From positions 1 to 64,000 of the forward strand of contig JBGARZ010000023.1 of assembly GCA_044229975.1 (NCBI GenBank): 64,000 bases of DNA. The letters are read 5' to 3'. A program made the position numbers and the translations under genes. Below are positions 6,535 through 59,993 of this stretch, in pieces. The stretch is from Polyangiales bacterium. Lineage in GTDB: Bacteria > Myxococcota_A > Polyangia > Polyangiales > Ga0077539. The notes beneath the pieces were generated by a model. The model ran no database searches. It was not told the origin of the DNA and was given only the letters and a program-made list of their open reading frames with translations. Position 1 is the stretch's first letter, and the number at the start of each line of letters is the position of its first letter.

Positions 6535-6538
<4 letters not shown>
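5171..6538 (-). CDS. BNR/Asp-box beta-propeller (NGRFP family) with MYXO-CTERM-like tail, paralog 2
   Basis: ATG at 6538 overlaps the czcA stop (ATGA); ASA-NGRFP; Asp-boxes; GACSV...WGLVGLLALWSRRR tail. Confidence 0.85.
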
Positions 6539-9714
<3,176 letters not shown>

Positions 9715-9715
9715 G

Positions 9716-10855
9716 TCAGTCTGCCTCGCCGAGCTCGCCGCCCTGGAGCGCGCTCTTGAGCGTGAAGGCCCCGCTCACTGCGAGCGCTGCGCCCTCCGAG
9801 AGGCCCCCGCGCAGCTCGTGGAAGCCGCCGGCCCGCCGACCGAGCTCGACGGCCTGCGGGCGGAAGGTGTTGGCGCCGCTCGCGGGGACGAAGACCGTGG
9901 GCTGACCCTCCACCGTCGCGACGGCATCGACCGGAACCACCAGGACGCGCTCATCGGGCGCCCCACCCACCAGCTCGACGCTCCCGAACAGGCCGCTGCG
10001 CAGGCGCGCGTCGGGGGTCGTGAGCGAGACGCGGATGGGCAGCGACCGGGTTCGCTCGTCGAGAGCGGGCGCGACGTAGACGACGGTTCCGGCGAGCGCG
10101 AGGTCGGGGAAGGCGTGCAGGCGCACGATGACCGCGGTGCCCACCGCGACGCGGGCGATCTCCAGCTCCGGGACGTCGCCGCGCACCCACACGCGGGTCG
10201 GGTCGGTCACCACGAAGACCGCCCGCTCGGGGCTCGCGGTCTCGCCGAGGGCCGCCTGCACGGCCACCACGACGCCGTCGATGGGAGAGCGGAGCTGGAG
10301 CTCGCCCGCGGTACCGGAGCCGAAAAGCGCGAGCTGCCTTTGGGTGCCCTCGACCTCCGCGCGCAGCTCGCCCACCTGCGCCTCGGCGTCGATGACCGAG
10401 CGCTGGGCGCCGATGCCCTCGGTGGAGAGCGCGCGCTGGCGGCGGAGCGTGGCCTCAGCGGCGGAGAGCCGGGCGCGGGCCTGACCGAGGCGGGCGCGGG
10501 CCGCGGAGACGTCGCTGGACGCGACGACCCCAAGCACCTGGTTGCGGGTCACCCGCTCTCCGATCGCGACGGCGACGCGGGTGATGCGGCCCGACACCAG
10601 CGGGCCCACCTGCGCAGTGCTGCTCGGTTCGAACTGAATCTCCGCGGGCAGGGCTGCGCCACCTCCGAGGGCGCGCCGCTCGACGCGCCCGGTTCGGATG
10701 CCCGCGAGCTGCATGGCTTCCGCGGTCAGCCGCACCTCGTGGGGCGCGCCGGCCTCCGCGGCGGGTTCGGAGGCAGGGGCTGGAGGGGCTGCACCCTTGC
10801 AAGCGATGAAGACGACGGAGAGCGCGACGAGCACCCGCGGAACAAGTCTGATCAT
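9716..10855 (-). CDS. czcB: RND periplasmic adaptor (CzcB/CusB family)
   Basis: LRSPIDGVV and LRSGLFG membrane-fusion motifs; directly upstream of czcA. Confidence 0.9.
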   Translation of the reverse strand: MIRLVPRVLVALSVVFIACKGAAPPAPASEPAAEAGAPHEVRLTAEAMQLAGIRTGRVERRALGGGAALPAEIQFEPSSTAQVGPLVSGRITRVAVAIGERVTRNQVLGVVASSDVSAARARLGQARARLSAAEATLRRQRALSTEGIGAQRSVIDAEAQVGELRAEVEGTQRQLALFGSGTAGELQLRSPIDGVVVAVQAALGETASPERAVFVVTDPTRVWVRGDVPELEIARVAVGTAVIVRLHAFPDLALAGTVVYVAPALDERTRSLPIRVSLTTPDARLRSGLFGSVELVGGAPDERVLVVPVDAVATVEGQPTVFVPASGANTFRPQAVELGRRAGGFHELRGGLSEGAALAVSGAFTLKSALQGGELGEAD

Positions 10856-12309
10856 GGCAACACCTCGGGGCTGTGGTCGTCGGGCCAGAGATCGACGCCG
10901 ACGGTTCGCTCCAGGTTGGCGAGGGCGACGAAGTAGTCGAGCTGCGCGTCGAGCGCGTCGTTTTGGATGCGTAGGAAGCGCTCGCGCCCGATGGAGAGGG
11001 CGAGCACGTCGATCTCCCCGAGCTCGAACGATCGCCGCAGCAGCGCAAGGTTCTCCTCGAAGCGCGGGAGCACCTCGGTGCCGTAGCTGCGCAGGCGCTG
11101 CGCCGCGGAGGTCACCTCGCTGTGGGCGAGCGCCACCTGGCCTTCGAGGAGCGAGAGCGCGGCCGCGAGCTCGGCCTCGGCGACCCGCACGTCGGCGCGC
11201 GATCGGGCCCGCTCACCCTGGTTGCGCTGGAAGCTCGGGATGGACACCGACACCACGCCCTGCACCGTGTGGTACGGCCCCTCGGCGGTGGGGTTTCCTT
11301 CCCGCTGGTATTGCAGACCGACGGTAGGCTGGGGCCACGACCCGCGGTCGGCGACGGCCACTCGCGACTGTGCCTCGCGCAGCGCAGCGTCGCGCGTGCG
11401 CAGCGACGGGAGCTGCTGGCGCGCCGTGGTGAGGAGCACATCGAGCGCCGGTGGTTCGCGCGCGGCGTCGACCTCTCCGACGGGCGTCGGCGGTCGTGCG
11501 ACGGGCCAGCCGGAGAGCTGCGCGAGCTGGAGGCGGGCGCTGAGGTAGCCCTGCGTGGCGGCGACGGTGAGCTGCCGCGCCTGGGCCACCTCGGCCTGCG
11601 TGAGGCGCAGCGTGAGGCCGGCGGTCTCCCCGGCGCGAATCTGTCGCTCGACGATGCGCAGCAGGTCCTCCTGGAAGGCGAGGATGCGCGCCGCGAGGAG
11701 GGCCCGATCGCGCTGCACCAGGGCGCGGTGGAAGGCCGCGTGGACGTCGCAGTGGACGGCCCAGCGGAGCTGCTCGATCTCGGCGTCGGTGAGGTCGCGC
11801 TGGCGGTCGGCGGCCGTGAGCCGCAGGCCCCGTTCGCCGCCGATGAAGAACTGCTGGGTCACGCTGGCCTGCACGTCGACGCCGGTGCCCGTGAGGCCGA
11901 GGCGGGGGCCGACGGCGAGGCTCACCTCGGGGTTGGACGGCAGCCACGGGGCGGCGGCGACGCGGGCGGCCACGGCGCGCGAGCGGGTGCTGCGGGCGAC
12001 CTGCAACACCGGCGCACGGGCGTCGGCGTACGCGAGGAACGCCAGGAGCTCGACCTCCTGAGGGCCAGTCGGATCGGGGAGCGCCGTGCGGATACCGGCG
12101 CGCGTCGGCGCGTGGTCGTTTCCGCCGGAGGACGGGGACGAGCGGAGGTGGGGAGCGACGGACTCGGGACGCTCGACGGGGACGCTCGATGCGCACGCCT
12201 GCACCAGCATCGCGCCGCAGACGCCGGCCACGCGGGCGAGTCGCGCCAGGGAGTGAAGAGTCCGCCGCGTTTCCGGCGCCGTGGATCGGCCGAGAGCGAG
12301 CCGGCTCAT
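10852..12309 (-). CDS. czcC: TolC/CzcC family outer-membrane efflux protein
   Basis: PSNPEV, PSFQRNQG, SFELGEID; ATG at 12309 overlaps the upstream stop. Confidence 0.88.
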   Translation of the reverse strand: MSRLALGRSTAPETRRTLHSLARLARVAGVCGAMLVQACASSVPVERPESVAPHLRSSPSSGGNDHAPTRAGIRTALPDPTGPQEVELLAFLAYADARAPVLQVARSTRSRAVAARVAAAPWLPSNPEVSLAVGPRLGLTGTGVDVQASVTQQFFIGGERGLRLTAADRQRDLTDAEIEQLRWAVHCDVHAAFHRALVQRDRALLAARILAFQEDLLRIVERQIRAGETAGLTLRLTQAEVAQARQLTVAATQGYLSARLQLAQLSGWPVARPPTPVGEVDAAREPPALDVLLTTARQQLPSLRTRDAALREAQSRVAVADRGSWPQPTVGLQYQREGNPTAEGPYHTVQGVVSVSIPSFQRNQGERARSRADVRVAEAELAAALSLLEGQVALAHSEVTSAAQRLRSYGTEVLPRFEENLALLRRSFELGEIDVLALSIGRERFLRIQNDALDAQLDYFVALANLERTVGVDLWPDDHSPEVLP

Positions 12310-13010
12310 GGTGCTCCCGGAGACGATCCGAGCATTGATGGGTTCCACTGGATCGTGCGCCCCGGCTGCACCGTCGGTCGGCTCACCAGGCCGAGGGCCA
12401 CGGCCCCCGCGCCGAGCGCCACGCCGATTCCCACGGTGACCCAACCGGCGGTCACGAAGCCGGTACGCCCTCGCGCCTCGTCATCGCCGAAGCCAAGGAG
12501 CACGGGCCCAGTGATGAGTCCCGCAACGCCGAACATCCCCATCACGAGCGCGCCGATGATGCCACCCGCGGAGGTCGTGCTACGGCCGATGGCGTGGCGC
12601 GCCACGGAAGGTTCGGCGCCCACGCTGATGAAGCCCGCGCTGCTGCGCCACGGATCATCGAGCACGCTGAAGAGGATCTCGTGGTGGCCGAGGGAAAGAT
12701 TCACCGCGCAGGGCAGGAGACACAGTGGTCGCGTCACACGCTGTGGACCTATGAGGTAGGCCCCGCGATACCCCACGGCGCCTTGGGGGATGGCCGTGTT
12801 CTCCGAGCGCTGGACGACCTCGTCGGCGCGCGCAGGCCCCTCTGTCGCGTCCAGGACCACACGTCCCTCGCCGGCACCCGGCGGAGGGAGTTCGCTTGCG
12901 ACGGTCGGCACACTGCGCGGTGGAACCGCAGGAGGCGGAAGGCCGCGTGGAGCGCACGCCTGCACCAGCAGAAGCGCCGTCACGTCGATGCGTTGAAGGG
13001 TCACTCGCAT
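12306..13010 (-). CDS. Hypothetical lipoprotein/membrane protein with two C-terminal TM segments
   Basis: LVQAC lipobox-like segment; CLLPC motif; two Gly-rich hydrophobic helices; translationally coupled to czcC. Confidence 0.65.
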   Translation of the reverse strand: MRVTLQRIDVTALLLVQACAPRGLPPPAVPPRSVPTVASELPPPGAGEGRVVLDATEGPARADEVVQRSENTAIPQGAVGYRGAYLIGPQRVTRPLCLLPCAVNLSLGHHEILFSVLDDPWRSSAGFISVGAEPSVARHAIGRSTTSAGGIIGALVMGMFGVAGLITGPVLLGFGDDEARGRTGFVTAGWVTVGIGVALGAGAVALGLVSRPTVQPGRTIQWNPSMLGSSPGAP

Positions 13011-32934: not shown

Positions 32935-33204
32935 TCAGTGACCGTGGCCACGTCGGCCATTGCCAGTCCACACCGGCGTCCCGTGCGGGGTGTAGCCACC
33001 GTGGCCCTGGTAGGGCGTGGGGATGATTCGCGGGGCGTAGACCGGCGCCTGCTGAACTGGGGCGTAGACGGGCACGGTCCATTGCCCGTGGCCGCCGTGG
33101 TGCCCCGGACCGCCGTACTGGTTGCCCCCATGGTGTTGTGCCATCGCGGTACCACCAGCGAGGAGAAGTCCGAGCGACAGGCTGAGAGTGGAGATGAAGT
33201 TCAT
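32935..33204 (-). CDS. Small secreted His/Gly/Tyr-rich peptide
   Basis: GGAGG RBS; signal AMA-QHHGG; GHHGGHG, PVYAP x2, GHGH tail. Confidence 0.7.
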   Translation of the reverse strand: MNFISTLSLSLGLLLAGGTAMAQHHGGNQYGGPGHHGGHGQWTVPVYAPVQQAPVYAPRIIPTPYQGHGGYTPHGTPVWTGNGRRGHGH

Positions 33205-34444: not shown

Positions 34445-35908
34445 ATGACAGGCCACTTTGCAGCGCGGGTCGGAATGCTTCTCGCGGGCATGTTGCTGAC
34501 CCCCGCGCCAGTGAGCGCGAACGGTCGCTTCCCGACGGCGGGCTACTTCGTCGCAGGCCCCGGGGTCCGCAATGACGTGTTCGCGCTGCGTACCACCTTC
34601 GGCGTGCTCGCCTCGCGCGACGCCGGGCAGACGTGGACGTGGGTCTGCGAGGCCGCCTACAACCAGATCGGCGCGAGCGACCCCACGCTCTCCATCGGCG
34701 CCGACGGAACCCTGGTTCTCGCCTCGTACCTCGGGCTGATTGCGAGCGACGGCGACTACTGCTCCTGGCCCAGGCTGGCCGGAGTGCCGCAGCGGGATTT
34801 CGCCGACGTGACCAACACCGCCGACGGGCGCTCGCTGGTCGCGCTCGCGGGGCCCGATGGTGAGAACGCGCTCTACCTCTCCAGCGACGCCGGCCACACC
34901 TGGGAGTTGGGGGCTCGCCTCACCGGATACGCGACCGAGACCGTGGACGTCGCGCCCGGCGATCGCCTGCGCGTGTACGTCACCGGCTACGGCAGCGGCG
35001 GGCGACCGGTGCTGCTGCGGAGTGACGACGGTGGTCGTACCGTGCGCGAGGTCACGAGGGATTTCCTGGGAAACCAGAACATCTATATCGCCGGGGTCGA
35101 TGCGACGCGCCCCGACATGATCTACCTCCGCGCCATGAACGGCCTCGCGACCACGCTGCTGCGCAGCGAGGACGGCGGGGCGACGATGCGGGCCGTCGGA
35201 CGGACCGCGCGGGACATGCTGGGCTTCGCGCTCTCCGACGACGGGGAGACCGTCTGGATCGCGAGCGCCGACCGCGCGGAAGGCATCCTGCGGTCGGAGC
35301 GCGGAGGGCCCTGGGTTCGCATGGCGGCGGACGTGGGCGTGAAGTGTCTGCGCTTCCACGCGGGCACGCTGTTCGTGTGTGCGGACGAGGCGCGCGACGG
35401 CTTCGCGCTGGGCTATTCCCACGACGGTGGCGACCACGTCGACCCGCTGCTCTCGTTCCGCTTGGTGGACGGGACGACCACGACGTGCGGCTCGAGCACC
35501 CAGGTCGGCGCCACCTGTCCCGCCCTCTGGTCCTCGGAGACGATCCTGCTGCGGAGCGTTGACGCGAGCGTGCCGAACGCTCCGGTCTTCCACGACGCCA
35601 GCACCGATCATGGGGTCATCACCGACCGCCTTCCGCCGCTCGACACCTACGTCCCGCCGTCGGACGGGGCGACGGTGCGCGACGCGGGTCGTGGACTCGA
35701 CGCGGCGGTCGTGAGCGGGACTGACGCTGCGATGGACGCTCAGCGTCCTCTCGACGCGGCGGTAGGATCGACCGGCCCCGCAGGTGGTTGCGGCTGCTAC
35801 GTCGCCAGTCGCGATGCATCGAGCGATCGGGGTGGGGCGTGCGTCGCGCTGGCCGTGTGGGTCACGTTCGCGGGAACATCAAGGCGCGCGCGGCGTCGGC
35901 GGCGATGA
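34445..35908 (+). CDS. BNR/Asp-box beta-propeller (NGRFP family) with MYXO-CTERM-like tail, paralog 4
   Basis: VSA-NGRFP; Asp-boxes; GGCGC...RRARRRR. Confidence 0.88.
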   Translation: MTGHFAARVGMLLAGMLLTPAPVSANGRFPTAGYFVAGPGVRNDVFALRTTFGVLASRDAGQTWTWVCEAAYNQIGASDPTLSIGADGTLVLASYLGLIASDGDYCSWPRLAGVPQRDFADVTNTADGRSLVALAGPDGENALYLSSDAGHTWELGARLTGYATETVDVAPGDRLRVYVTGYGSGGRPVLLRSDDGGRTVREVTRDFLGNQNIYIAGVDATRPDMIYLRAMNGLATTLLRSEDGGATMRAVGRTARDMLGFALSDDGETVWIASADRAEGILRSERGGPWVRMAADVGVKCLRFHAGTLFVCADEARDGFALGYSHDGGDHVDPLLSFRLVDGTTTTCGSSTQVGATCPALWSSETILLRSVDASVPNAPVFHDASTDHGVITDRLPPLDTYVPPSDGATVRDAGRGLDAAVVSGTDAAMDAQRPLDAAVGSTGPAGGCGCYVASRDASSDRGGACVALAVWVTFAGTSRRARRRRR

Positions 35909-37377
35909 GTCCCTCGCCAGAACGTCCCCTGGGTGGCCGGAGGCGACAGGCGGTGCGGTTGGGGATGCTGTTGGTGGCGACGGCCCTGAGCTCTGCGGAG
36001 GCGCGGGCGAACGGGCGCTTCCCCGGGGCCAACTACTTCGTGGCGGGGCCGGGTTCGCGCAACGACGTGTTCGCGCTGCGTACGACCTTCGGACTGCTGC
36101 TCTCGCGCGACGGTGGTCGGGCGTGGAGCTGGGTCTGCGAGGGGGCCTACGGGGCCATCGCGGGCGACCCCGCGCTCTCGATCGGAGCGGACGGCACCCT
36201 CGTGCTCGCGTCGTACGTCGGCCTGAGCGGCAGCAGCGGCGGTGACTACTGCACCTGGGCGCCTCTGGGAGGAGTTCCTGTGCGGGACTTCATCGACGTC
36301 TCGCAGACCGCGGACGGCCGGTCGATGGTCGCCCTCGCGGGGCCCGGCGGGGAGAACGCGCTCTACCTCTCGTCCGACGGCGGGCGCACCTGGAACCCCG
36401 GCGCGCGCCTCGTCGGGTACACCACGGAGACCGTGGACGTCGCGCCCAGCGACCCGACGCGGGTCTACGTCACCGGGTACGCGACCACGGGCTCGGGCGG
36501 ACCGGTGCTGCTGCGAAGCGACGACGGCGGTCGCACCGTTCGAGAGGCCACGCGCGACTTCCTCGGCGGCGAGAGCGTCTTCCTGGCCGGGGTGGATCTG
36601 ACGCGCCCCGACGTGATCTACCTGCGCGCCGTGCGCGGCCTCCCGACGACCCTGTTGCGCAGCGACGACGGAGGAATGACCGTACGGCTCGTCGCGCAAA
36701 CCGCGCGGGAGATGCTGGGCTTCGCGCTCTCTGACGATGGTGACACGGTGTGGATCGCGAGCGCCGATCCCGCCGGGGGGATACTGCGATCGGAGCGTGG
36801 CGGCCCATGGACGCGCACCGCAGCGGACCTTGGCGTGAAGTGTCTGCGCTTCCACGCGGGCACCCTGTTCGTGTGCGCGGACGAGGCGCGCGACGGCTTC
36901 GCGCTGGGCTATTCCCGCGACGGCGGCGACCACGTCGATCCGTTGCTCTCGCTGCGTCTGGCGGAGGGCGCGTCCGGGGCTTGCGGTCCAGGCACCCAGG
37001 TGGGCGGCGCCTGCGCTTCCCGCTGGGCGACAGAGACGATGCTGCTCCGAGACATCGACGCGAGCGTGCCAACCGCGGCGGTGTTCCACGACGGGAGCAC
37101 CGATCACGGAGTCGCACTCGATCGGGCTTCGCCAATCGACGGGCCGACCGGTCGCCTCGACGCGGGTCAACCAACCGACATGATGGTCCTTCCCCCTGGT
37201 GGCTGCGGGTGTCGCGTAGCGGGGCGGGGCGGAGGGCCAGCACGGGGCGTGACGGTGAGCGCGTGGCTCACCGCGGCGGTGGTGCTCGTCGGGCGTTTGA
37301 GGCGACGAGCGCCGGCGAGGAGTGCCCATCTCCCGGCAGCCCGACTTGCTCCCGCGCAAACGGCGAGGCTCGGTTGA
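35905..37377 (+). CDS. BNR/Asp-box beta-propeller (NGRFP family) with MYXO-CTERM-like tail, paralog 5
   Basis: ATGA overlap with paralog 4 and high similarity to it; GGCGCRV...GRLRRR. Confidence 0.88.
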   Translation: MSPSPERPLGGRRRQAVRLGMLLVATALSSAEARANGRFPGANYFVAGPGSRNDVFALRTTFGLLLSRDGGRAWSWVCEGAYGAIAGDPALSIGADGTLVLASYVGLSGSSGGDYCTWAPLGGVPVRDFIDVSQTADGRSMVALAGPGGENALYLSSDGGRTWNPGARLVGYTTETVDVAPSDPTRVYVTGYATTGSGGPVLLRSDDGGRTVREATRDFLGGESVFLAGVDLTRPDVIYLRAVRGLPTTLLRSDDGGMTVRLVAQTAREMLGFALSDDGDTVWIASADPAGGILRSERGGPWTRTAADLGVKCLRFHAGTLFVCADEARDGFALGYSRDGGDHVDPLLSLRLAEGASGACGPGTQVGGACASRWATETMLLRDIDASVPTAAVFHDGSTDHGVALDRASPIDGPTGRLDAGQPTDMMVLPPGGCGCRVAGRGGGPARGVTVSAWLTAAVVLVGRLRRRAPARSAHLPAARLAPAQTARLG

Positions 37378-37443
37378 CGGAAATGCGAGTGCTTTGATAG
37401 GGCAGTCTCGGAGTGTGCTGGCGCACCTCATTGGGAGGACATC

Positions 37444-37749
37444 ATGGATATCCGAACTGTCGCTTTTGCCGTCGCTTCGTTGGCTTTGGGTTTGGCTGCC
37501 GGAGACATCAGGGCTGAAACACCGATCACCATGCAGGAGGACGTGCTCCAGACACCTCCCGCGACCCCCTTGCAGCACTGCTGGCAAGAGTGCCATCCCG
37601 AGTGCCATCCGGTTTGCGTCCCCGAGTGCCATCCGGTCTGCCACCCCATCTGTGATGCCGATGGGCACTGCCACCAGGACTGTCACCAGGAGTGCCACCA
37701 GGACTGTCACCAGGAGTGCCACCAGGAGTGCCACCAGGTTTGCCGCTGA
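37444..37749 (+). CDS. Secreted (CHxx)n Cys/His-repeat peptide (TPLQ-leader type)
   Basis: GGAGG RBS; signal peptide; ATPLQ followed by 14 Cys at 4-residue spacing in two arms and 12 His; 12-bp DNA periodicity. Confidence 0.85.
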   Translation: MDIRTVAFAVASLALGLAAGDIRAETPITMQEDVLQTPPATPLQHCWQECHPECHPVCVPECHPVCHPICDADGHCHQDCHQECHQDCHQECHQECHQVCR

Positions 37750-37932
37750 CGAAGAGGCGGACCTCCTCGTCGGAAGCCCGCATGTAGAGAGCGAGTGCGC
37801 GCGTTGGCGAGGTTTCTTCCGGGGGGTGTCGCCATCGAAATCCGTCGAGGTGCGACGGAGGCAACGTATCGGGGATCGTCCAAGCTGCGAAGGCCCGATC
37901 GCCGCGAGGCGTGCCGCACCTGCAACCGTTGG

Positions 37933-39258
37933 GTGTACCTTCCCGGCGTGCTTCGACGAGCTCTCCTCGCAACCGCGCTGAGCTTCCTTCCAGCCACGGC
38001 CTACGGCAACGGACGCTTCCCCCAGGCGCAGGAGTTTCACCAAGCCCCGGGCTCGAACAGCGAGCTCATGGTCGTGCGCGCCACCTTCGGACTCATCGTC
38101 AGCGTCGACCGGGGCCAGCGGTGGGAATACTGGTGCGAGGACGCTCTGCAGTACTCCGACGGCTACGATCCGCCGCTGACGTACACCGCCAACGGCACGC
38201 TGCTCGTCGCCCTCGACAACGGCCTCTTGAGCACCCGCGATGGGTGTTCAGTTCGCCGCCAACCCGACCTCGAGTCCCTCAGCGTCAAGGACATCGCCTC
38301 GTCGCCCGACGGCCGCGTGACATGGGCGATCGCGGTGACCCGCAGCATACGACCCGACTCGCGCGTCGCACGTTCGACCGACCAGGGCCTCACCTTCGAG
38401 TTCGTCGGCGACCGCTTCGAGGGGGTGATGCTGGAAACCATCGAGGTCGCGGGCTCCGATCCGCTGCGGCTCTACGCCACCGGCACGCTGACCTCCGACG
38501 GCACCGCGGTGCTCTTCCGCACCGTGGACGGCGGCGTGCGCTGGGTGCGCGCCAGCGCGGGCTTCGGCGAGGCTAGCGGGGTGTACGTCTCCGGCGTCGA
38601 TGGGCATCGCCCGGAGGTCGTCTACCTGCGCGCGACCGCGGCCGGGCGGGACATGGACGCCGGCCCCGCGGGCAGCGCTGATGTGCTCTTCCGCAGCGAC
38701 GATGGGGGTGAGACGCTGCGCGAGGTGCTTCGTACCCGCGGCCCGATGCGGGGGTTCGGACTCTCCGACGACGGTCGACGGGTGTGGGCTGGCGGGCCCG
38801 AAGACGGCGTGTGGCGCTCCATCGACGGGGCAGCGCCCACGCGCTTTTCGGACGAGCCTGTCGACTGCCTCCGGTGGAGTTCGGGTGCCCTGTGGGCCTG
38901 CCGCGTCTTCACCCTCGGCGGCCCCTTGTTGCTGCGGAGCGACGGCGACAGCGCCTTCGTCACAGCGCTTTCGGCGCCTGAGGTTGGCGGTCCTCCGGTC
39001 CGTTGCCCGACCGGAACCGTCGCGAGCGGGGTGTGTCCGTCGCGGTGGAGCGTGGTGCGGCGATCTCTCGTTCAGCCGGCGGCGATCGATGCCTCGACCG
39101 ACCAGGGCGCGGCGGTCACGCAGCCGTCCTCGGCGGGCCATGGATGCCACGCCGGACCTGGGGCGCAGGGGGCTTGGAGCGCCTTCGTCGGGTTCGCCGT
39201 TGCGGCGATCGGACGGCGGCGGCGCACTCGCACCCTCCGCTCCCGCCCTGACGGCTGA
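37933..39258 (+). CDS. BNR/Asp-box beta-propeller (NGRFP family) with MYXO-CTERM-like tail, paralog 6
   Basis: AYG-NGRFP; YWCE; Asp-boxes; GHGCH...AAIGRRRR. Start approximate. Confidence 0.85.
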   Translation: MYLPGVLRRALLATALSFLPATAYGNGRFPQAQEFHQAPGSNSELMVVRATFGLIVSVDRGQRWEYWCEDALQYSDGYDPPLTYTANGTLLVALDNGLLSTRDGCSVRRQPDLESLSVKDIASSPDGRVTWAIAVTRSIRPDSRVARSTDQGLTFEFVGDRFEGVMLETIEVAGSDPLRLYATGTLTSDGTAVLFRTVDGGVRWVRASAGFGEASGVYVSGVDGHRPEVVYLRATAAGRDMDAGPAGSADVLFRSDDGGETLREVLRTRGPMRGFGLSDDGRRVWAGGPEDGVWRSIDGAAPTRFSDEPVDCLRWSSGALWACRVFTLGGPLLLRSDGDSAFVTALSAPEVGGPPVRCPTGTVASGVCPSRWSVVRRSLVQPAAIDASTDQGAAVTQPSSAGHGCHAGPGAQGAWSAFVGFAVAAIGRRRRTRTLRSRPDG

Positions 39259-39665: not shown

Positions 39666-41181
39666 CTACCGCCCACTCAGTCGGGCGACAGCTTCTTCGA
39701 GCGCGCGTCCCATCTCCGCCTCGGGGTCCGCTTCGGCCCGGATCACGCTCCGCGTCCCGACCCCAAGAGTTTGGGTCACCTGGACCTGAGTCCAGCCCTT
39801 GGACCTGCGCCATGCGCGCAGCTCGCTGCCCGTCGGGATCGAGGGCACTGGGGCGGCTCGACGGGCGGGAGGTGGTGGATCAGGCGGTCGCGGACCCACT
39901 GGGGGGGTAGAGGTGACAGCGGCCCCCGAGCGTCCGTTCGCCGCCCGCTTGACACCATCGCACCTCGCCCAGACCTTCGACGCGTTGGAGTTCGGCCAAG
40001 TCGCGCTCGAGGGACGTCCAGGCGCGACCCGGCTTGTTGGAGTCGAACTTGATGCCCGCGGTCTCGAGGAGTCCCTGGCCGGTGAGCGTGACGCACTCCC
40101 GGCCCTTCGCGAGGTCCCAGCGCCAGTGGATCGGGAGGATCAGTCCCAGGGCGAGGGCGCAGGGGTGGCGCACATGGTCGATGCGCGCGAGGTCGGCCGG
40201 GGCGGGTGCCCAGAGTGATCCCAGGGTGCCGTCGCGGTCCCGGACACCCTCGTAGAGCGCGGGGTGGATGGCCAGCACGAGCCCCTCCAGCGCCCACTCG
40301 GAGTCGTAGATCGCCTCGGCCCGCTGCGTGATGCTGAGCACGGGGCCGCGCATCCGCAGCTCCCCGCTGCGGTGGTAGATGGCCAGTTCGAGCCGCGTCA
40401 GCGCTTCGACCTCGTCGGCGACGACCTTACGCACGGAGTCGTCGCGGCGCGCGCGGTCGGAGTACCCGAGCGCGTCCATGTGCGCCTCGATTTTCCACCG
40501 CACGAACCCCGTTCGCCCCTCCGTGGTGAGCAGCCGGTGCCAGGCCGCCCAGTGCCGGAGCCCCTGCCACCCGCACCACGCCCTCACGGCGTGGATGATC
40601 CGCTCGGGGAGTTCTCGGACGTCCAGCTGCAAGCGCACCTGCCGGGTGGGGGCGAGGATCTCGGCCCACCCGTCCATGACCGGCGTCTTGTGCGGTTGCC
40701 TGTCTTTCGGGCGGTCGCGCCAGCCGTTGAGCAGCGCGTGGTGCGCGGGACCCGCGTCGAGTGCCATGAACGGCCGCTCGCGGTCGCGCTGGGCCGCGCG
40801 GACCGCGTGAGCCGAGAGCGCCGACAACGCCAGGACCCTCGCCAGCTCCCAGACCCTGGACAGGAAGTCCTGCTCGCCCGCGACCCCTTGCTCGGCGGCC
40901 ATGACCAGCGAGGCTGCACCCCACGTCCAGTCGAAGGCCGCCCCGCCGCGGATTCCGGGAAGGGTCGCCGGTCTGTCCGGTGTACCGGTTCCCCGATCGA
41001 CTGGGCGGTTCGCGCCGTTGGCTTGGAGCGCGAGGACGGTGCTGAACACCTCGCCGCGCGCTTCCAGATCGCTGCGAAGGTCGGCGAGGCCTTCCGGGCC
41101 GCTCGCCGTGGCCAGGAGCCGGTCGATCACCAGGCCGAGGTCCTTGTCCGACACCAGGGCTCGAAGCGCGTTCCGCAGCAC
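39666..41181 (-). pseudogene. Rep-like protein with C-terminal XRE HTH, frameshifted paralog of 44751..46397
   Basis: Shares WQGLRHWAA, EVEALTR and LALGLILPIxWRW. The C-terminus (LYPP/QWVRDRL/TGSELRAWR) is split over three frames near a G7 run at 39901. Confidence 0.7.
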
Positions 41182-41229
41182 CTGGGCGTCGGCTCGGCGT
41201 CACGGACACGCCGCGCGAGCACGCGAAGG

Positions 41230-41735
41230 AGGTGCTGAGGGAGCTGCTGGCGATGAGGGTCCAGAAGACGCTCATGCTGAGCGGAGACCACCAGGGGTCG
41301 CCGACGCGGTGGCCCGGCAGGTCGGCCTGACCGACGCGAAGGGCGACCTGCTCCCCGAGGACAAGGGCCGCGTCATCGACGAGCTCGCGAAGGCCGGCGT
41401 CGGCGTCGCCATGGTAGGCGACGGGTTCAACGACGCCCCAGCGCTCGCCTGATCGACCGTCGGGATCGCCATGCGGGCAAGCGGTTCGGACGTGGCGCTG
41501 AAGACAGCAGACATCGTGCCCATGGGTGACGACCTGCGGGCTTTGCCCTTCGCCGTGGGCCTCAGCCGCGCCTGCCGGCGGGTCATCCAACAGAACCTCT
41601 GGGCGAGTCTCGGCATGGTCGCGTTCCTCATCCCAGCAACTGTGTTCGGGATCGCCGGCATCGGCGTCGCGGTCGTGCTGCACGAAGGTTCGACACTCCT
41701 TGTCGTGACCAACGCCCTGCGCCTGCTGGCATTCA
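41230..41735 (+). pseudogene. C-terminal fragment of a P1B-4 heavy-metal ATPase
   Basis: [24 protein letters not shown], then an in-frame TGA, then VVLHEGSTLLVVTNALRLL. Confidence 0.85.
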
Positions 41736-41844
41736 TTGCCCCCATTTCACAGCGAAACCATAGTTGCTTCTCCGCCTTTCCTTCTGGACGTCATTCCTTC
41801 ATGCCGTCACGAAGGCAAGATGGTCGCGTCGTACCGTGCGTCCA

Positions 41845-41923
41845 CGCCGCGTGCTTCCACTGCGACCCTCTGCTGGAGGGGTGTGACCCCGATCCGGCGT
41901 GACATCAGTCGTCGAGCTGTTGA
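41845..41923 (+). repeat. ~80-bp direct repeat, copy 1
   Basis: CGCCGCGTGCTTCCACTGCGACCCTCTGCTGG...GTCGTCGAGCTGTTGA, near-identical to 43827-43910. Confidence 0.9.
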
Positions 41924-41924
41924 G

Positions 41925-43448
41925 TTAGGGGGGTCGAGTCGGCGACTGTGACCCTGACGGCCCATGCTTCCGCGGCGGGGACCGACGGCGAGCCGGGACG
42001 ATCAGTCCCAGGACTGCCAGCACGAGCGACGCGCCACCCCCACCGGGCGCGGCGTGCGCCCCCGCGCGGCAGTTGCACCCGTCGCGCGGCGCTGGTGCGC
42101 CAACGGCGTCGAGCACGGTGTCGGGGGCATCGAGCACCCGGCCCGCGTCGCGGGCGTCGGCCCCGCCGAGATCCTCAGACACGTCGGGCGCGGCGCCGAG
42201 GTCCGCGGGCAGCGTCCCGGCGTCGAGCGGCGCCTGCATCCCGCTCGCGTCGAAGACGGCGGCATCGTGGAAGACCGGCGCGCGCGGCGCGCTCGCGTCG
42301 ATGCTCCGAAGCGGCGCCGAGACCGCCGACCAGAAGTCGGCGCACGTCGCCCCGACGCTGGCGTCGCCGCACATCGGAGAGGTGCCGGTGAGCCGACGTA
42401 GCGAGAGCAGCGGGTCGATGTGCTCGCCGCCGTCGTGGGAGTAGCCCAGCGCGAATCCGTCAATCACCTCGTCGGCGCACACGAAGAGCAGCCCGGCGTG
42501 ATAGCGCAGGCACTTCACACCAACGTCGCCACCGACACGCGTCCACGGGCCACCGCGCACCGATCGGCGGATGCCCTCGGCGCGAGCGGAGCTCGCGGTC
42601 CAAACGGTCTCGCCGTCGTCGGAGAGCGCAAAGCCCACCATCTCCTCCGACGTCTCCCCGATGGGGCGTAGGGTCAACCCGCCGTCATCGCTGCGCAGCA
42701 ACACCGTCCCGAGACCACGGGTACCTCGCACGTACACCACGTCGGGCCGGCGCGGATCGACGGCAGCGAGGAATACCCCATGGGCGCCGGCAAAGTCCCG
42801 CGCGACCTCGCGCACCGAGCGCCCGCCGTCGTCACTGCGCAGAAGAACCGGGATGCCGCCGCGAACATAGGCCGTCACGTAGACTCGCCGCGGGTCGTTG
42901 GGCGCCACGTCCGCGGTCTCGCTGAAGTACCCCATCAGCCGCGCGCCAGCTTCCCAACTCCGCCCGCCGTCGGACGAGAGCACCAACACGTCGTCGCCGG
43001 TGGGCCCGGCCAACGCAACCATGGCGCGCCCGTCGGCGGTGTGGGTAATGTCGGCAAAGCCCCGCGTGGGCGCGCCCGCCGGACGCGTCCAGCGACAGTA
43101 CGCCCCGTTGCTGGATGCGAGCCCGGTGAAGGTTGCGATCACCACGGTGCCGTCGGCGCCGATGGAGAGCGACGGATCGGCAGCGCCAGGGGCATTGAAG
43201 CCCTCCTCACAAACCCAATCCCACTGCCGCCCGCCGTCTCGCGAGAGCAGCAGACCGAAGGTCGTGCGCAGCGCTAGGACGTCGTTGGTCGCGCCCGGGC
43301 CCGCGACGAAGTATCCCGCTGCGGGGAAGCGCCCGTTGGCCTGCGCCTCGCCCGCGAAACCGAGAGCCAGCGCCAGACCCAGTGCCCCCACCCTACCCCG
43401 CACCGCTCCCCCGCACATCCAATGCCCACCCGCCGTTGGTGCTGTCAT
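41925..43448 (-). CDS. BNR/Asp-box beta-propeller (NGRFP family) with MYXO-CTERM-like tail, paralog 7
   Basis: AQA-NGRFP; close to paralogs 4 and 5; DGCNCRA...LIVPARRR. Confidence 0.87.
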   Translation of the reverse strand: MTAPTAGGHWMCGGAVRGRVGALGLALALGFAGEAQANGRFPAAGYFVAGPGATNDVLALRTTFGLLLSRDGGRQWDWVCEEGFNAPGAADPSLSIGADGTVVIATFTGLASSNGAYCRWTRPAGAPTRGFADITHTADGRAMVALAGPTGDDVLVLSSDGGRSWEAGARLMGYFSETADVAPNDPRRVYVTAYVRGGIPVLLRSDDGGRSVREVARDFAGAHGVFLAAVDPRRPDVVYVRGTRGLGTVLLRSDDGGLTLRPIGETSEEMVGFALSDDGETVWTASSARAEGIRRSVRGGPWTRVGGDVGVKCLRYHAGLLFVCADEVIDGFALGYSHDGGEHIDPLLSLRRLTGTSPMCGDASVGATCADFWSAVSAPLRSIDASAPRAPVFHDAAVFDASGMQAPLDAGTLPADLGAAPDVSEDLGGADARDAGRVLDAPDTVLDAVGAPAPRDGCNCRAGAHAAPGGGGASLVLAVLGLIVPARRRSPPRKHGPSGSQSPTRPP

Positions 43449-54915: not shown

Positions 54916-56868
54916 CTACGACCGTAGCATTCGGAGGCCGTTCGCGATCACCAGGAACTCGCTCACCTCGTGCGCGAGCACCGCGACGGGGAGGGCGAAG
55001 ACGCCGCCCACGGCCCCCACCGCGAGCACCGCGATGACGACGATGGAGAGCACGACGTTCTGCCGGATGACCCCCCAGGTGCGCCGACTGAATCCGACGA
55101 GGTACGGGAGGCGCATGAGGTCGTCGGTCATCAGGGCGACGTCGGCCGTCTCGAGCGCGACGTCGGTGCCGGCCGCGCCCATCGCGATGCCGACCGCGGC
55201 GGCGGCGAGCGCGGGCGCGTCGTTCACGCCGTCGCCGACCATCGCGACCTCCCCGTAGCGCGCGCGGAGCTCGGCCACGCGCCGGGTCTTGTCCTCGGGG
55301 CTCAGGTCCGCGAACACCTCATCGACGCCCGCCTTCGCGCCGATCGCGCGGGCGGCGCGGGCGTTGTCGCCCGTGAGCATGACGACGCGGGTGATGCCGG
55401 CGCGCTTGAGCGCGGCGACGGCCTCCGCGGCCTCGGGCCGCAGCGGGTCCGCGATCGCGACGAGCCCGTGGAGAGCCTCCTTCGTGCCGAAGAGGACCAC
55501 GGTGTTGCCGGCCTCCTGGAGGCGCTCGACGTGCGCCTCGGCGCCCGCCAGGGGGGTGCCCAGTTCGGCGAAGAGCTTGGGGCTGCCGACGTAGAGCCGG
55601 CGCCCCCCGACCGTCCCCTGGGCGCCGAGCCCGGTCATCGACTGGAAGTCCTCGGCCGGCGCGGCCTCGACGCCCGCGGCCTTGGCGCGCGCGAGGATCG
55701 CCCGGGCGAGCGGGTGCTGTGAGCGGGCCTCGAGCGCGGCCGCCTCCGCGAGGAGGCTCCGCTCGTCGTGGCCCTCGAAGGGCACCACCTCGGTCACCTC
55801 TGGCCGACCCACGGTGAGGGTCCCGGTCTTGTCGAGCGCGACGACCCGGATCTTGGCGAGCTCCTCCAGGTGGACGCCGCCCTTGATGAGGATGCCACGC
55901 CGCCCCGCGGTCCCGATCGCCGCGACGAGCGTGATCGGGACCGAGATCACGAGGGCGCAGGGCGCCGCCGCGACGAGGAAGACGACCGCCCGGTGGAGCC
56001 ACGCCGAGGCCCCGAGCCCGAGGGCGATGGGGACGACCGCGAGGAGCGCCGCGGCCCCGAGCACGGCGGGGCTGTAGCGCCGACCGAAGCGCTCGATGAA
56101 GCGCTGGCTCTTGCCCTTCTTCGCCTGCGCCGCCTCGACGAGTTGGATGATGCGCGAGATCGTGTTCTCCGCGAAGGCCTTGGTCGCCCTCACGGCGAGC
56201 ACGCCCTCGCCGTTGATCGACGCGGCGAACACGGCGTCCGCGGGCGCCTTGTCCACCGGCACCGACTCGCCCGTCACGGGCGCCTGGTTGACGGCCGAGC
56301 GGCCCTCGATCACCTCGCCGTCGGTCGGGACGGCCTCGCCGGGCCGGACGATGAACACGTCGCCGGGCCGGAGCTGCTCGACCGGGACGCGCTCCTCCTT
56401 GTCTCCGCGGCGCAGGAGGGCGGTCTTCGGCGCGAGGTCCATGAGCGCGCGGATGGCGTCGCGCGTGCGCGCCGCGGTGTACCCCTCGGAGGCCTCGCTG
56501 ATCGCGTAGAGGAAGACGAGCGCCGCGGCCTCGGCCCACTCGCCGAGGAGCCCCGACGCCACGGCCGCGACGGTCATCAGGAGCTCGATCCCGACCTCCC
56601 GCTCCTTCACGAGCTCCTCGAGGGCCTCGCGGGCGAAGAAGTACCCGCCCACCGCGACGGCGGCGACGTAGAGCCCCGTGGCGACGCCGGCCGGAAGGCC
56701 GATCTTCCCGCCCACGTAGCCCACGGCGAGGAGGACCCCCGCGGCGGCCGCCGAGAGCACCTTCGGGTTCCGCCATGGCTTCGGCATGGGGCCCTTCGGC
56801 TTCGCGTGGCAGCCGTCGCTGCACGCCTCGTCCTGGTCTTCCTCGCGGTCGCTGGTCGTGTCGGTCAT
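54916..56868 (-). CDS. Heavy-metal translocating P1B-type ATPase
   Basis: ATG overlaps the czcA stop; TGES, APC, DKTGT, HP, TGDN, GDGVNDAP, HEVSE; short N-terminal CxxxCH. Confidence 0.93.
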   Translation of the reverse strand: MTDTTSDREEDQDEACSDGCHAKPKGPMPKPWRNPKVLSAAAAGVLLAVGYVGGKIGLPAGVATGLYVAAVAVGGYFFAREALEELVKEREVGIELLMTVAAVASGLLGEWAEAAALVFLYAISEASEGYTAARTRDAIRALMDLAPKTALLRRGDKEERVPVEQLRPGDVFIVRPGEAVPTDGEVIEGRSAVNQAPVTGESVPVDKAPADAVFAASINGEGVLAVRATKAFAENTISRIIQLVEAAQAKKGKSQRFIERFGRRYSPAVLGAAALLAVVPIALGLGASAWLHRAVVFLVAAAPCALVISVPITLVAAIGTAGRRGILIKGGVHLEELAKIRVVALDKTGTLTVGRPEVTEVVPFEGHDERSLLAEAAALEARSQHPLARAILARAKAAGVEAAPAEDFQSMTGLGAQGTVGGRRLYVGSPKLFAELGTPLAGAEAHVERLQEAGNTVVLFGTKEALHGLVAIADPLRPEAAEAVAALKRAGITRVVMLTGDNARAARAIGAKAGVDEVFADLSPEDKTRRVAELRARYGEVAMVGDGVNDAPALAAAAVGIAMGAAGTDVALETADVALMTDDLMRLPYLVGFSRRTWGVIRQNVVLSIVVIAVLAVGAVGGVFALPVAVLAHEVSEFLVIANGLRMLRS

Positions 56869-59800
56869 GGCGCCTGGTCCTGCGGTGGGGTGGGTCGGGG
56901 GTCCGTGGCTCGGCGGCCGCCGAGCCAGGCGTAGAGCGCGGGAAGCACGAGGAGGGTGAGGAGCGTCGAGGAGACGATCCCGCCGATCACGACCGTCGCG
57001 AGGGGGCGTTGCACCTCCGCGCCGGCGCCGTCGGAGAGGGCCATCGGCACGAACCCGAGCGAGGCGACGAGGGCCGTCGTCAGCACGGGGCGCATCCGCA
57101 CGAGCGCCGCCTCGCGAACCGCGCGGGCCGGGTCGTCGCCCGCCTCCTCGCGGTGGCGCGCCGTCGAGACGAGCACCAGGCCGTTCAGGACGGCGACGCC
57201 GAAGAGGGCGATGAAGCCCACCGCCGCCGAGATCGAGAAGGGCATCCCGCGCGCGGCGAGCGCGAGCACCCCGCCCGTCGCGGCGAAGGGCACGTTCAGG
57301 AAGATGATCGCGGCCGGGCGGGCCGCGTTGAAGCTCGTGTAGAGCAGCACGAAGATGAGCCCGAGCGCGAGCGGGATCACGACCGCGAGCCGGCGCGTCG
57401 CGGCCTCGAGCTGCTCGAACTGCCCGCCCCACTCCACGCGGTAGCCGGGCGGGAGGCGCACCTCGCGCCCGACCCGCGCGCGGGCCTCGGCCACGAAGGA
57501 GGCGAGGTCGCGCCCGCGGACGTTGGCCTGGATCGCCACGCGCCGCGACACGTCCTCGTGGCTCACCTGGGCCGGGCCGGGGTCGTCCGTGATCGTCGCG
57601 ACCTGCGCGAGCGGCACCGTGCGCCCGTCGAGGGTCGCGACGGGCAGGTCGCTCAGGGCGTCGGGGGCGGCGCGCGTCGCGGGGTCGAAGCGCACCTGGA
57701 TCGCGTACGCGAGCGCCCCCTCGCGGACCTCGCCCACCGTGATCCCGCCGAGCGCGCTCACGGTGTCGAGCACGTCGCCGACGCGCACGCCGTAGCGCGC
57801 GGCCGCCCGGCGGTCGATGGCGACCCGCCGCATGGGGAGCCCGCTCACCTGCTCGGCGCGCACGTCCTGGGCGCCCGGGACGCGGCGCAGGCTGCGCGCG
57901 ATCTCGTCGGCCGACCCGCGCAGGAGGTCCAGGTCGTCGCCGAAAAGCTTGACGACGACGTCGCCGCGCGCGCCGGCGATGAGCTCCGCCATCCGCTGCT
58001 TGATGGGCTGCGAGAAGCCGAAGACGATGCCGGGAACGGCGCTCCGCACGCGCCGCTCCATGGCCTCGACCAGGTCCTCGCGGCGGCGGAAGCGCCAGCG
58101 CTCGCGCGGACGGAGCATGACGAGCACGTCGGTCATCTCGACGCCCATGGGGTCCATCGCGATCTCGCCCCGCCCGGTGCGGCAGACCACGGTCTCGACC
58201 TCGGGGAAGGACCGCAGGGCGCGCTCGAGGTCGGTCGTCTGGCGCGCGGCCTCGGGGAGCGAGGTGCTCGGCAGGCGGTAGACCTCGAGCGCCATGGCGC
58301 CCTCGTCGAGCTCCGGGATGAACTCCCCGCCGCGCGTCGCGGCGACGCCCGCGGCGAGGGCGAGCGCGGCGAGGGCGACCCCGACGGTCACCCAGCGGCG
58401 GCGGAGCGCCGCGTCGAGGAGCGGGCGGTAGGCGCGGCGCGCGGCCGCGACGAGCCAGCTCTCCTTCTCCTCGAGCCGCAGGGGCAGCAGGAGCGAGGCG
58501 AGCACGGGGGTGAGCGTGAGCGACAGCACGAAGGCCGTCGCGAGGGCGAAGATCACCGTGAGCGCCATCGGCCGGAACATCTTCCCCTCGACGCCTTCGA
58601 GGGTCAGGATCGGCAGGTAGACCAGGGCGATGATGAGCTCGCCGAAGGCCGTCGCCGAGCGCACCTCGAGCGAGGAGGCCAGCACGACCTCGTCGCGCTC
58701 CGCCGGGGTGAGCGCGCGCCCTTCCCGGGCGTGCCGCTCGGAGAGGTGCCGGACGGCGTTCTCGACGATGATGATGGCGCCATCGACGACGAGGCCGAAG
58801 TCGATCGCGCCGAGCGACATGAGGTTGCCCGAGAGGCCGGCCGCGCGCATGCCGACGAAGGCCCCGAGCATCGCGAGCGGGATCATGGCGGCGACGACGA
58901 GACCCGCGCGCACGTTTCTCAGCATGAGGAAGAGGACGAAGACGACGAGGAAACCGCCCTCGACGAGGTTCCTCGCCACCGTCGCGACGGTGCGGCGGAT
59001 GAGGTCGGTGCGGTCGTAGTAGGGCTCGATCCGCACGCCCGGCGGGAGCGTCGGCTGGATCGCCGCGACCCGCGCGCGCACCCGATCGACGACCGCGCGG
59101 GCGTTCTCGCCGAGGAGGAGGAGGGTGACCCCCGCGACGATCTCGCCCCGGCCGTCGCGCGTGACGACGCCCTGGCGCACCGCCGGCACGAAGGCGACCC
59201 GGCCGAGCTGCCGGAGGTAGACCGGCGTGCCGCCCTCGCCCAGCGCGACCACCGTGTCGCCCAGGTCGTCGAGCGAGCGGATGAGGCCGTCGCCGCGCAC
59301 GAGCACCTGCTCGCGGTGGCGCTCGAGGTACGCGCCCCCGGCGCTCCCGTTGGCGTGCTCTACCGCTTCGATGACCTCGCGGAGCGTCAGGCGGTGGGCG
59401 ACGAGGCGCGCGGGGTCGAGCTCGAGCTGGTAGGTCCTGAGCTCGCCGCCGAAGGTGTTGACCTCGATGACGCCCGGCACCGTGCGGAGCTGCGTCGCGA
59501 TGGGGCCCTCGAGGAGCGCGCGCAGCTCCATGGCCGAGCGGCCGGGGCCGCGGACCTCGAACTGGTAGATCTCGCCGAGGCCCGTGGTGATGGGCGCGAG
59601 CACGGGCTCGCCGTAGCCCGCGGGGATGGCCGCGCGGGCCTCCTGGAGCCGCTCGGAGACGAGCTGGCGCGCGCGGTAGATGTCCGCGCCGTCGGCGAAG
59701 ACGATCGTCACCTGAGAGAGGCCGAACTTCGAGACCGAGCGCACGTCCACGACCTCCGGGATGCCCGTCATCGCCCGCTCGACGGGGGTCGTGACGAAGC

Positions 59801-59993
59801 GCTCGACCTCGAGCGGTCCGAGGGCCGGTGCGGTGGTGAGGACCTGCACCTGGACGTTGCTGATGTCGGGCACCGCGTCGATCGGGAGGCGGGACGCGGC
59901 GTGGACGCCCGCGACCGCGAGGACGGCGGTGAAGGCGAGCACGAGGAAGCGGTTCTGGAGCGACCACTCGACGAGACGCTGGATGACGATCAC
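56865..59993 (-). CDS. czcA: CusA/CzcA family heavy-metal efflux RND transporter (second copy)
   Basis: LPIDAVPDISNVQVQV, SLGAIDFGLVVDG, EVQRPLATVVIGG. Confidence 0.95.
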   Translation of the reverse strand: MIVIQRLVEWSLQNRFLVLAFTAVLAVAGVHAASRLPIDAVPDISNVQVQVLTTAPALGPLEVERFVTTPVERAMTGIPEVVDVRSVSKFGLSQVTIVFADGADIYRARQLVSERLQEARAAIPAGYGEPVLAPITTGLGEIYQFEVRGPGRSAMELRALLEGPIATQLRTVPGVIEVNTFGGELRTYQLELDPARLVAHRLTLREVIEAVEHANGSAGGAYLERHREQVLVRGDGLIRSLDDLGDTVVALGEGGTPVYLRQLGRVAFVPAVRQGVVTRDGRGEIVAGVTLLLLGENARAVVDRVRARVAAIQPTLPPGVRIEPYYDRTDLIRRTVATVARNLVEGGFLVVFVLFLMLRNVRAGLVVAAMIPLAMLGAFVGMRAAGLSGNLMSLGAIDFGLVVDGAIIIVENAVRHLSERHAREGRALTPAERDEVVLASSLEVRSATAFGELIIALVYLPILTLEGVEGKMFRPMALTVIFALATAFVLSLTLTPVLASLLLPLRLEEKESWLVAAARRAYRPLLDAALRRRWVTVGVALAALALAAGVAATRGGEFIPELDEGAMALEVYRLPSTSLPEAARQTTDLERALRSFPEVETVVCRTGRGEIAMDPMGVEMTDVLVMLRPRERWRFRRREDLVEAMERRVRSAVPGIVFGFSQPIKQRMAELIAGARGDVVVKLFGDDLDLLRGSADEIARSLRRVPGAQDVRAEQVSGLPMRRVAIDRRAAARYGVRVGDVLDTVSALGGITVGEVREGALAYAIQVRFDPATRAAPDALSDLPVATLDGRTVPLAQVATITDDPGPAQVSHEDVSRRVAIQANVRGRDLASFVAEARARVGREVRLPPGYRVEWGGQFEQLEAATRRLAVVIPLALGLIFVLLYTSFNAARPAAIIFLNVPFAATGGVLALAARGMPFSISAAVGFIALFGVAVLNGLVLVSTARHREEAGDDPARAVREAALVRMRPVLTTALVASLGFVPMALSDGAGAEVQRPLATVVIGGIVSSTLLTLLVLPALYAWLGGRRATDPRPTPPQDQAP

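Follow-up and report, generated by a model that had tools for sequence, protein, structure and literature searches.

The peptide gene and its neighbourhood

The window analysed here is the whole stretch of 64,000 nucleotides from a Polyangiales bacterium (contig JBGARZ010000023.1), and it carries at 37444-37749 (+) an open reading frame for a peptide of 101 aa. Translation of this frame gives a core exactly as first described, and residue counts bear out the symmetric 7+7 Cys and the 12 His reported in the initial annotation. The 14 Cys (residues 46, 50, 54, 58, 62, 66, 70, 76, 80, 84, 88, 92, 96 and 100) are spaced 4,4,4,4,4,4,6,4,4,4,4,4,4, with seven on each side of a loop, and together with the 12 His they lie within a 57-residue core that is net anionic (10 Asp/Glu vs 1 Arg). 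At the DNA level, the core consists of two tandem arrays with 12/24-nt units. The N-terminus has a hydrophobic stretch (mean hydropathy 2.25) followed by a cleavage-like site, xRA before E, and export of the peptide through Sec is thus likely, as judged from these signals. The features of the locus, with the nearest metal-efflux genes, are as follows.

6535..12444, - strand: CzcCBA-type efflux operon (context)
35788..37377, + strand: NGRFP BNR-repeat propeller gene on the upstream side (context; partnership not conserved)
37374..37401, + strand: candidate promoter-like element, TTGACG-N16-GATAGG, of a spacing enriched in the genome
37433..37438, + strand: Shine-Dalgarno sequence GGGAGG, 5 nt 5' of the ATG
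37444..37515, + strand: predicted Sec signal peptide, residues 1-24, putative cleavage between IRA and E (hydropathy maximum 2.25; 2.53 in the homologue described below)
37516..37575, + strand: variable spacer ending in PLQ (20 residues; some 6 in the homologue)
37576..37653, + strand: arm 1, H45-C70, with seven Cys at i+4 and five Pro, all at i+2
37654..37668, + strand: five-residue loop DADGH (family pattern D-x-x-G-H; DNWGH in the homologue)
37669..37749, + strand: arm 2, C76-R101 and stop, with seven Cys at i+4 in Pro-free CHQ[DE] units
37795..39258, + strand: downstream NGRFP propeller gene with a MYXO-CTERM-like tail (context)
56865..59993, - strand: nearest CusA/CzcA heavy-metal RND pump gene (TIGR00914 over cut-off), 19.2 kb from the peptide gene

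The spacer had been described as short, acidic, and ending in TPLQ; the PLQ is kept in the homologue, but the T is not, and the spacer is mildly acidic (3 of 20 residues). Upstream of the gene, a scan with the sigma-70 consensus gave no match. Across the genome, TTGAC-N17-GATA is found at 20 sites vs 3-7 at each of five other spacings, and ATA reaches its maximum at offset 19 after TTGAC. No RNA record is listed for the gene's sequence. The 13-mer GGAGGACATCATG is present in two copies in 10 Mb, each of which precedes a small secreted His-rich ORF of the window.

The second of these ORFs, at 32935-33204 (-), shares the 13-nt start context of the main peptide and, like its neighbour at 32531-32758 (-), is small and His-rich with a signal-like start; one of the two contains exact 30-nt repeats (YGQPTHGQTV), and both are singletons in the protein collection. 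A further small secreted His/Cys peptide (23557-23862, -; 101 aa, 10 His, 7 Cys) has TPLQ before its core, lies downstream of an NGRFP propeller gene with TTGACA-N17-ATCGGG upstream, and has no convincing relative in 60 other genomes. Its paralogy with the main peptide was considered and judged weak (E 0.018, with the leader score reached in 195 of 5000 shuffles). In a genome scan for small secreted His/Cys ORFs, three of the six matches fell in the window, and the other three were tails of longer frames.

It had been noted that the peptide gene lies between propeller genes in a metal-efflux island, and this description holds: there are propellers on both sides, and CzcCBA, P1B-ATPase, and ArsR genes are in the window. 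The metal genes comprise two CzcCBA-type systems, one P1B-ATPase and pieces of a second, and repressors of the ArsR and BlaI/CopY types; plasmid-like, other mobile, and unrelated genes are present as well. In the plasmid-like block (39880-50201), there are ParA and two paralogous Rep-like ORFs, a propeller gene is flanked by the pieces of a P1B-ATPase gene, and repeats of 32 nt lie at 44139-44233 and 44684-44781.

The propeller expansion extends through the whole family (31/31 genomes), and no family model names these proteins. There are 14 NGRFP BNR-repeat propellers with MYXO-CTERM-like tails in this genome, eight of them on this contig and seven in the window at 3041-44033. Congener islands have one copy behind a P1B-ATPase and another behind CzcA, and the downstream propeller of our locus (37795..39258) looks like a duplicate of the core gene that follows iscA in congeners. 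Elsewhere in this genome (G000:C29, 145529-147891), two genes beside an NGRFP propeller resemble MbnP and MbnH.

A homologue in a second genome

Where the initial annotation had proposed looking for homologues and their neighbourhoods, a six-frame search across the order (401 genomes) yielded six matches besides the window, and one of these was far ahead of the rest. This match (E 2.8e-15), in genome G097 from another family of the same order, is the single true homologue, and it too lies in a metal-efflux locus. The homologue is 80 aa long and consists of a signal-like start, VPLQ, six Cys at i+4, DNWGH, and again six Cys at i+4; its first arm also has two Pro, which like those of the peptide are at i+2, and its second arm ends the chain with CH. 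Identity to the peptide is 58% overall. The symmetric Cys count about the turn, on which the initial annotation had staked its reading, is therefore kept at another length (6+6), such that both genes have equal arms, 7+7 and 6+6, around the same five-residue loop. By chance, this would be expected in about 1 in 64 cases, if arm lengths are assumed to be independent and uniform over 3-10, which is an assumed prior. The pattern C-x3-C-[DN]-x-x-G-[HKR]-C matches only these two genes in this genome and 147 loci.

The coding status of the peptide needed a test, because 12/24-nt arrays yield off-frame (CHPE)n in unrelated DNA. Among 31 metagenome matches to the repeat, 27 were off-frame or leaderless in the frame read, and the remaining four had no peptide there; nine of ten genome-contig loci with the repeat were of the same chance off-frame kind, as were the viral matches. 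Given the frequency of such frames, and given that the peptide was not found in the eight congeners searched, it could be argued that the locus is a non-functional 12-nt repeat whose frame is read by chance. We find this hardly credible. When 49 loop-anchored codons of the two genes were compared, 20 were identical, 13 synonymous, and 16 changed, so that the residue was kept in 33 of 49, and 25 of the 43 base differences fell at codon position 3. The homologue has kept the signal and the loop, and part of its divergence is synonymous. Furthermore, a Shine-Dalgarno sequence is present, and the antisense frame that shares the wobble position contains two stops in the peptide gene and is also interrupted by stops in the homologue. 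The pattern of codon changes indicates that the reading frame is under purifying selection.

Does the neighbourhood of the homologue resemble that of the peptide? In G097, a CzcA gene lies on either side of the homologue, one at 1.4 kb and the next at 3.2 kb. A TolC/CzcC gene and a P1B-ATPase gene of the Zn/Cd/Pb type are downstream of the homologue, and two Tat-type His/Cys peptides are encoded upstream of it. G097 has three CzcA genes that score over the cut-off, and all of them (3/3) are on the homologue's contig. Only 0.18% of the G097 genome is as near such a pump as the homologue is, and 3.8% of the present genome lies within 19 kb of one, as the peptide does; both figures are post hoc and concern two cases. 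The propellers were considered as the peptide's partner and rejected: congener island propellers have no such peptide beside them, and the only propeller match of G097 at E<=1e-20 is on a different contig. Consequently, it is the link to metal efflux that is conserved between the two genomes, and the link to propellers is not.

Other small peptides were seen in these islands. In the czc locus of G097, CSDSDPxDPxGHG repeats are found in two Tat-type peptides and WCxEHxVPESxCxxC repeats in a small lipoprotein (L131 1812-2114; L135 11034-11354 and 15964-16251, -), the repeats of the lipoprotein recur at the start of CzcB, and none of the three has an NCBIfam match. A congener's metal island encodes a 60-aa secreted peptide with CCxPGSPCC repeats (L067:8825-9007, -).

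Searches for further relatives were extensive. Six-frame samples, which overlap and count the peptide's own genome where it was included, covered 61 relatives, 401 genomes of the order, 401 of the phylum, 32 of G097's family, 381 of the class, and 186 of another family; apart from the homologue, they returned off-frame repeats, (CHSA)n tails, long proteins with CxxxC repeats, and a single lipoprotein. A possible third member, which is partial, is a 184-nt contig of run X1 that matches 37675-37720 with seven other letters and whose unaligned ends, translated manually in that frame, read VRAENDAVQL ahead of the match and CRPVCHQE behind it. Full-length members thus number two. At the protein level, a word-indexed search gave no true member among six candidates or in the single candidate among longer proteins, phmmer against 1.84 billion representatives gave one match, from a different family and not a member, and two tries of the ESM Atlas gave no usable match. 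Pfam and NCBIfam had no match to the peptide at E 0.01, PHROGs had one weak match (E 0.005), and plasmid sequences had none for either peptide. In addition, the exact peptide is absent from a collection of 15 billion proteins that includes its same-contig neighbours, and the same is true of the G097 homologue, two neighbours of which are present. Since both are missing where adjacent genes are found, only six-frame searches will find this family, and it may be widespread yet unseen.

Proposed fold and function

As each arm of the peptide has an odd number of Cys (seven), its Cys could be fully oxidised only with one or more bonds between arms or between chains. It had been proposed that the peptide is a beta-hairpin with up to seven cross-strand disulfides, a claim on which the evidence is divided: all seven are feasible in backbone geometry and the Cys symmetry is kept, but AlphaFold returned helices twice. 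Structure prediction, which had been suggested at the outset, was run on the single sequence and gave a helix-loop-helix rather than a beta-hairpin; in two runs without an alignment there were two long helices (pLDDT 68 and 77, pTM 0.41 and 0.46), which run through the five Pro. With the helical model, Foldseek found no match at E<=0.001, and the best Z of 5.6 in another fold search was uninformative. The sole PDB sequence match was Ole e 6 (E 0.04 and 0.22), in which 3+3 Cys align around the loop.

These predictions favour an alternative in which the peptide is an alpha-helical hairpin of the alpha-hairpinin/Ole e 6 type, with the three to four rungs near the loop laddered, the outer Cys in local or interchain bonds, and His at i+4 forming metal ridges. 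The alpha-hairpinin motif, CX3C-Xn-CX3C mirrored around a loop, is indeed present at C66-C70 / C76-C80 and extended to 7+7, and arm 2 is rich in Gln/Glu. Furthermore, in alpha-hairpinins the CXXXC motifs lie on two antiparallel helices joined by nested disulfides (PMC7191063). However, alpha-hairpinins and Ole e 6 (PDB 1ss3) are helical plant proteins with 2+2 or 3+3 Cys, as compared with 6+6 or 7+7 in the present His- and acid-rich family, which has Pro in arm 1. The fold of Ole e 6 has three disulfides. In arm 1 of the peptide there is a Pro at every fourth residue; i+4 positions drift by 40 degrees per unit on a helix, or by 240 over seven Cys; and rigid helices fit at most three to four rungs, leaving the equal outer counts unexplained. 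We therefore consider the helical hairpin quite unlikely.

The geometry was compared using ideal backbones, without side chains and from few starts. Rigid ideal helices satisfied 3/3, 3/4, 2/5, and 1/7 nested pairs, uniformly twisted rigid beta strands 2/7, polyproline II 3/7, and flat beta strands 7/7. A four-residue-periodic ribbon with Pro phi of -80 to -55 at i+2 met all seven Cb-Cb distances (4.1 A) together with the cross-strand H-bonds; this flexible model is 68 A long, and several of its torsions ended at their allowed limits. In such models, then, a beta-ribbon would be able to carry all seven cross-strand disulfides, and a helical hairpin only three to four. In the register of the ribbon, the Pro of both peptides (7/7) fall at i+2, a non-H-bonded site, and Cys pairs and Pro:Gln pairs share the same non-H-bonded face, where Pro costs no H-bond. 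The opposite face had been described as a His array. His would indeed lie opposite the disulfides, but in a checkerboard with Glu or Asp rather than alone, with His facing Glu/Asp at 7/12 positions in the peptide and 9/12 in the homologue. The D-x-D-G loop is readable as a 3:5 turn. On the other hand, His, Gln, Glu, and Pro have a low beta propensity, which tells against the ribbon. A title in the reference list of PMC4354306 places cross-strand disulfides at non-H-bonded sites, in line with the ribbon, but the paper itself describes them as strained and easily reduced, which is a further point against it.

Taken together, these results have led to a model, to which we give about an even chance, of a Sec-exported hairpin that is stapled by nested disulfides and binds several divalent metals as a buffer beside Czc pumps. 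Export, oxidation, fold, and metal binding are what we infer from the sequences. The model is weakened by the number of full-length members, which is two, by the post hoc nature of the distances to pumps, and by the presence of unrelated and other mobile genes in the window. In this model, the peptide would be exported by Sec, and the chain would fold back at the D-x-x-G-H loop into a long hairpin. Oxidation would then yield nested disulfides, C70-C76, C66-C80, and so on to C46-C100, seven here and six in the homologue. For residues 25-101, the calculated mass is 8896.9 Da in the reduced form and 8882.8 Da with seven disulfides. The product would be a two-stranded beta-ribbon of about 7 nm, one face of which would present Cys and Pro/Gln, and the other His paired across the strands with Glu/Asp. 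Adjacent cross-strand pairs, such as H51/E95 with E53/H93, would together supply two His and two carboxylates to each metal site, with water or a second chain possibly providing further ligands, and one extra CHxE unit per arm would add one rung and one site. Bound divalent ions might thus be buffered beside the Czc pumps, as PcoE reportedly does for copper. A broader proposal, that these peptides represent a new family of metal rails that are exported and adjustable in length (a 6-7 nm ribbon with a staple at every fourth residue, an uninterrupted His/Glu checkerboard, a linear row of metals, and growth by matched duplication in the arms), is offered tentatively, as one about which we are more doubtful.

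The ligands could be others. If the Cys remained reduced, the peptide would be an exported metallothionein-like sponge in which Cys and His ligate Zn, Cd, or Cu, the symmetry pairing Cys and His into a row of S/N sites. The 14 Cys and 12 His in 57 residues and the metal-efflux context in both genomes speak for such a sponge, and bacterial metallothioneins do use Cys plus His (PMC12193353). SmtA and PmtA are, like the peptide, small and rich in Cys and His, and found in a metal-resistance context. In PMC12193353, however, such metallothioneins are described as cytoplasmic, with irregular Cys spacing and thiolate clusters, whereas both peptides have signal-like N-termini and the peptide has strict i+4 spacing, mirror symmetry, and about as many His as Cys. 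Furthermore, there is no metallothionein family match, and even Cys totals with exact mirror counts are what disulfides need. On balance, a metallothionein-like sponge seems unlikely, although the case for it is not a trivial one. It should be noted that this sponge and the helical hairpin would, like the disulfide-stapled ribbon, make the peptide an exported metal binder.

Another possibility is a miniature multiheme c-type protein with CX3CH motifs. The peptide has overlapping CxxxCH patterns, His to spare, and an export signal, and cytochromes c are encoded elsewhere in the window. However, there is no cytochrome family match, all patterns are CX3CH with no CXXCH among them, the mirror symmetry would be unexplained, and one heme per eight residues exceeds any packing of which we know. 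This idea is thus very improbable.

How does the stapled ribbon compare with known systems? In function, the peptide would resemble known periplasmic metal scavengers, and its architecture is likely to be new, being in no family library, PDB sequence, or paper found; no paper naming the family was found in the literature searched, which lay largely outside subscription journals. PcoE, CzcE, and SilE, periplasmic scavengers beside efflux systems, are likewise small, exported, and tied to metal-resistance clusters. Proteins of this type are rich in His and Met and are not known to have a Cys ladder, and family-profile searches gave no sequence match between them and the peptide. Theta-defensins and protegrin are cystine-ladder beta-hairpins, which are short and cationic with 2-3 rungs; the likeness is in the proposed cross-strand disulfide ladder on a two-stranded ribbon, and the difference is in the anionic core, the 6-7 rungs at i+4, and the His lattice. 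PcoE scavenges free periplasmic copper (PMC12193353). The peptide is likely to add a metal-buffering component of undescribed architecture to Czc-type resistance loci. If the ribbon is real, a natural ladder of 6-7 rungs with a His/carboxylate lattice would be useful as a compact scaffold in protein design, in biosorption, and for the binding of several metals.

Possible enzymatic modification and other Cxxx-repeat peptides

It had been suggested that the peptide might instead be a RiPP precursor or a Cxxx-repeat modification substrate, and also that no radical SAM enzyme is visible in the window. The second statement is correct for the whole 152-kb contig, which has 0/71 of the genome's PF04055 matches, and the first is weakened, as there is no adjacent or cognate maturase and family scores are below cut-off. 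The peptide scores 12.7 bits with TIGR04117 (cut-off 50) and 9.8 with TIGR04118 (cut-off 35). For the cognate maturase, TIGR04115, the best score in this genome, which is 93% complete, is 129.5 vs a cut-off of 350 bits, on another contig. In G097, the nearest radical SAM gene is 37 kb from the homologue.

Nonetheless, a radical SAM or MNIO maturase encoded elsewhere could modify the peptide in trans, in which case the peptide would be an orphan substrate comparable to other proteins with CHxx/Cxxx repeat tails. The best protein-level match is a (CHxx)n-GSRGWR precursor (E 1.8e-4), a plasmid relative of which sits among six radical SAM/SPASM genes; (CHSA)n-tailed proteins have an adjacent CxxxCxxC enzyme in 9/10 loci; and Tat-type Cxxx peptides of locus L016 precede an enzyme of the CxxxCxxC type. 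Radical SAM enzymes are responsible for the maturation of HxsA, an exported protein with His repeats (PMC13128918), and the present genome has four MNIOs in addition to its 71 radical SAM matches. The C-terminal CHxx repeat is common to the peptide and to the TIGR04117/TIGR04118 targets (whose maturase is TIGR04115), GSRGWR precursors, (CHSA)n tails, and HxsA, and a signal-like leader is shared with the GSRGWR family and HxsA.

Several findings argue against such a maturase. The tails known so far are loop-free, monotone Ala/Ser repeats, whereas the peptide has two arms and a loop, an acidic fourth position, and no adjacent enzyme. The GSRGWR-type end, present in 13/13 members of that family (in one as ASRSWR), is absent from both peptides. 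An orthologue of the CHSA maturase is in neither genome, the best matches being 36% and 35% over part of the length vs 62% between orthologues, and the hosts of (CHSA)n tails, proteins of 500+ aa with an adjacent maturase, are unlike the free peptides of 80-101 aa seen here. Nor does this genome have an orthologue of the plasmid-cluster enzymes: with eight proteins of that cluster as queries the best E was 0.002, and the positive control worked. A TIGR04115-like gene is present in 21/30 family genomes where the peptide was not found. Finally, no MNIO gene (PF05114) is adjacent to the peptide gene, the nearest on this contig being 65 kb away with its own precursor; of the four MNIO genes, three are each immediately preceded by an SCG-repeat precursor of their own, and for the fourth none was recognised. 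Modification in trans is thus improbable, and CHxx repeats are not necessarily substrates of radical SAM enzymes, the peptide being a putative exception.

The searches also brought to light candidate substrates of such enzymes. The MNIO precursors upstream of genes on contigs C19, C29, and C31 of this genome (G000) are lipoprotein-like, with AASCG/MSCG repeats and His-rich ends. In Pseudomonas plasmids (128 of 144 matching records), the (CHxx)n-GSRGWR precursor is encoded with six radical SAM/SPASM genes and a PEP-utilising enzyme (L026:2931-13679), and no paper with the GSRGWR-type motif was found in the literature searched. A Woesearchaeota MAG (L016:5111-8230, +) has three tandem Tat-type peptides with Cxxx/Pro-rich tails and weak TIGR04117 scores, followed by a radical SAM/SPASM gene. 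In the present genome, a 428-aa protein ending in (CSSD)n is encoded directly upstream of a radical SAM/SPASM gene (G000:C32, 205923-208682, -), and a similar tail is found in L010. Contig C30 of this genome (150 kb) contains about 29 of the 71 radical SAM matches and, at 124642-125418, an HxsA-like protein with HGS repeats; we read this group as a greatly enlarged Hxs-like cluster.
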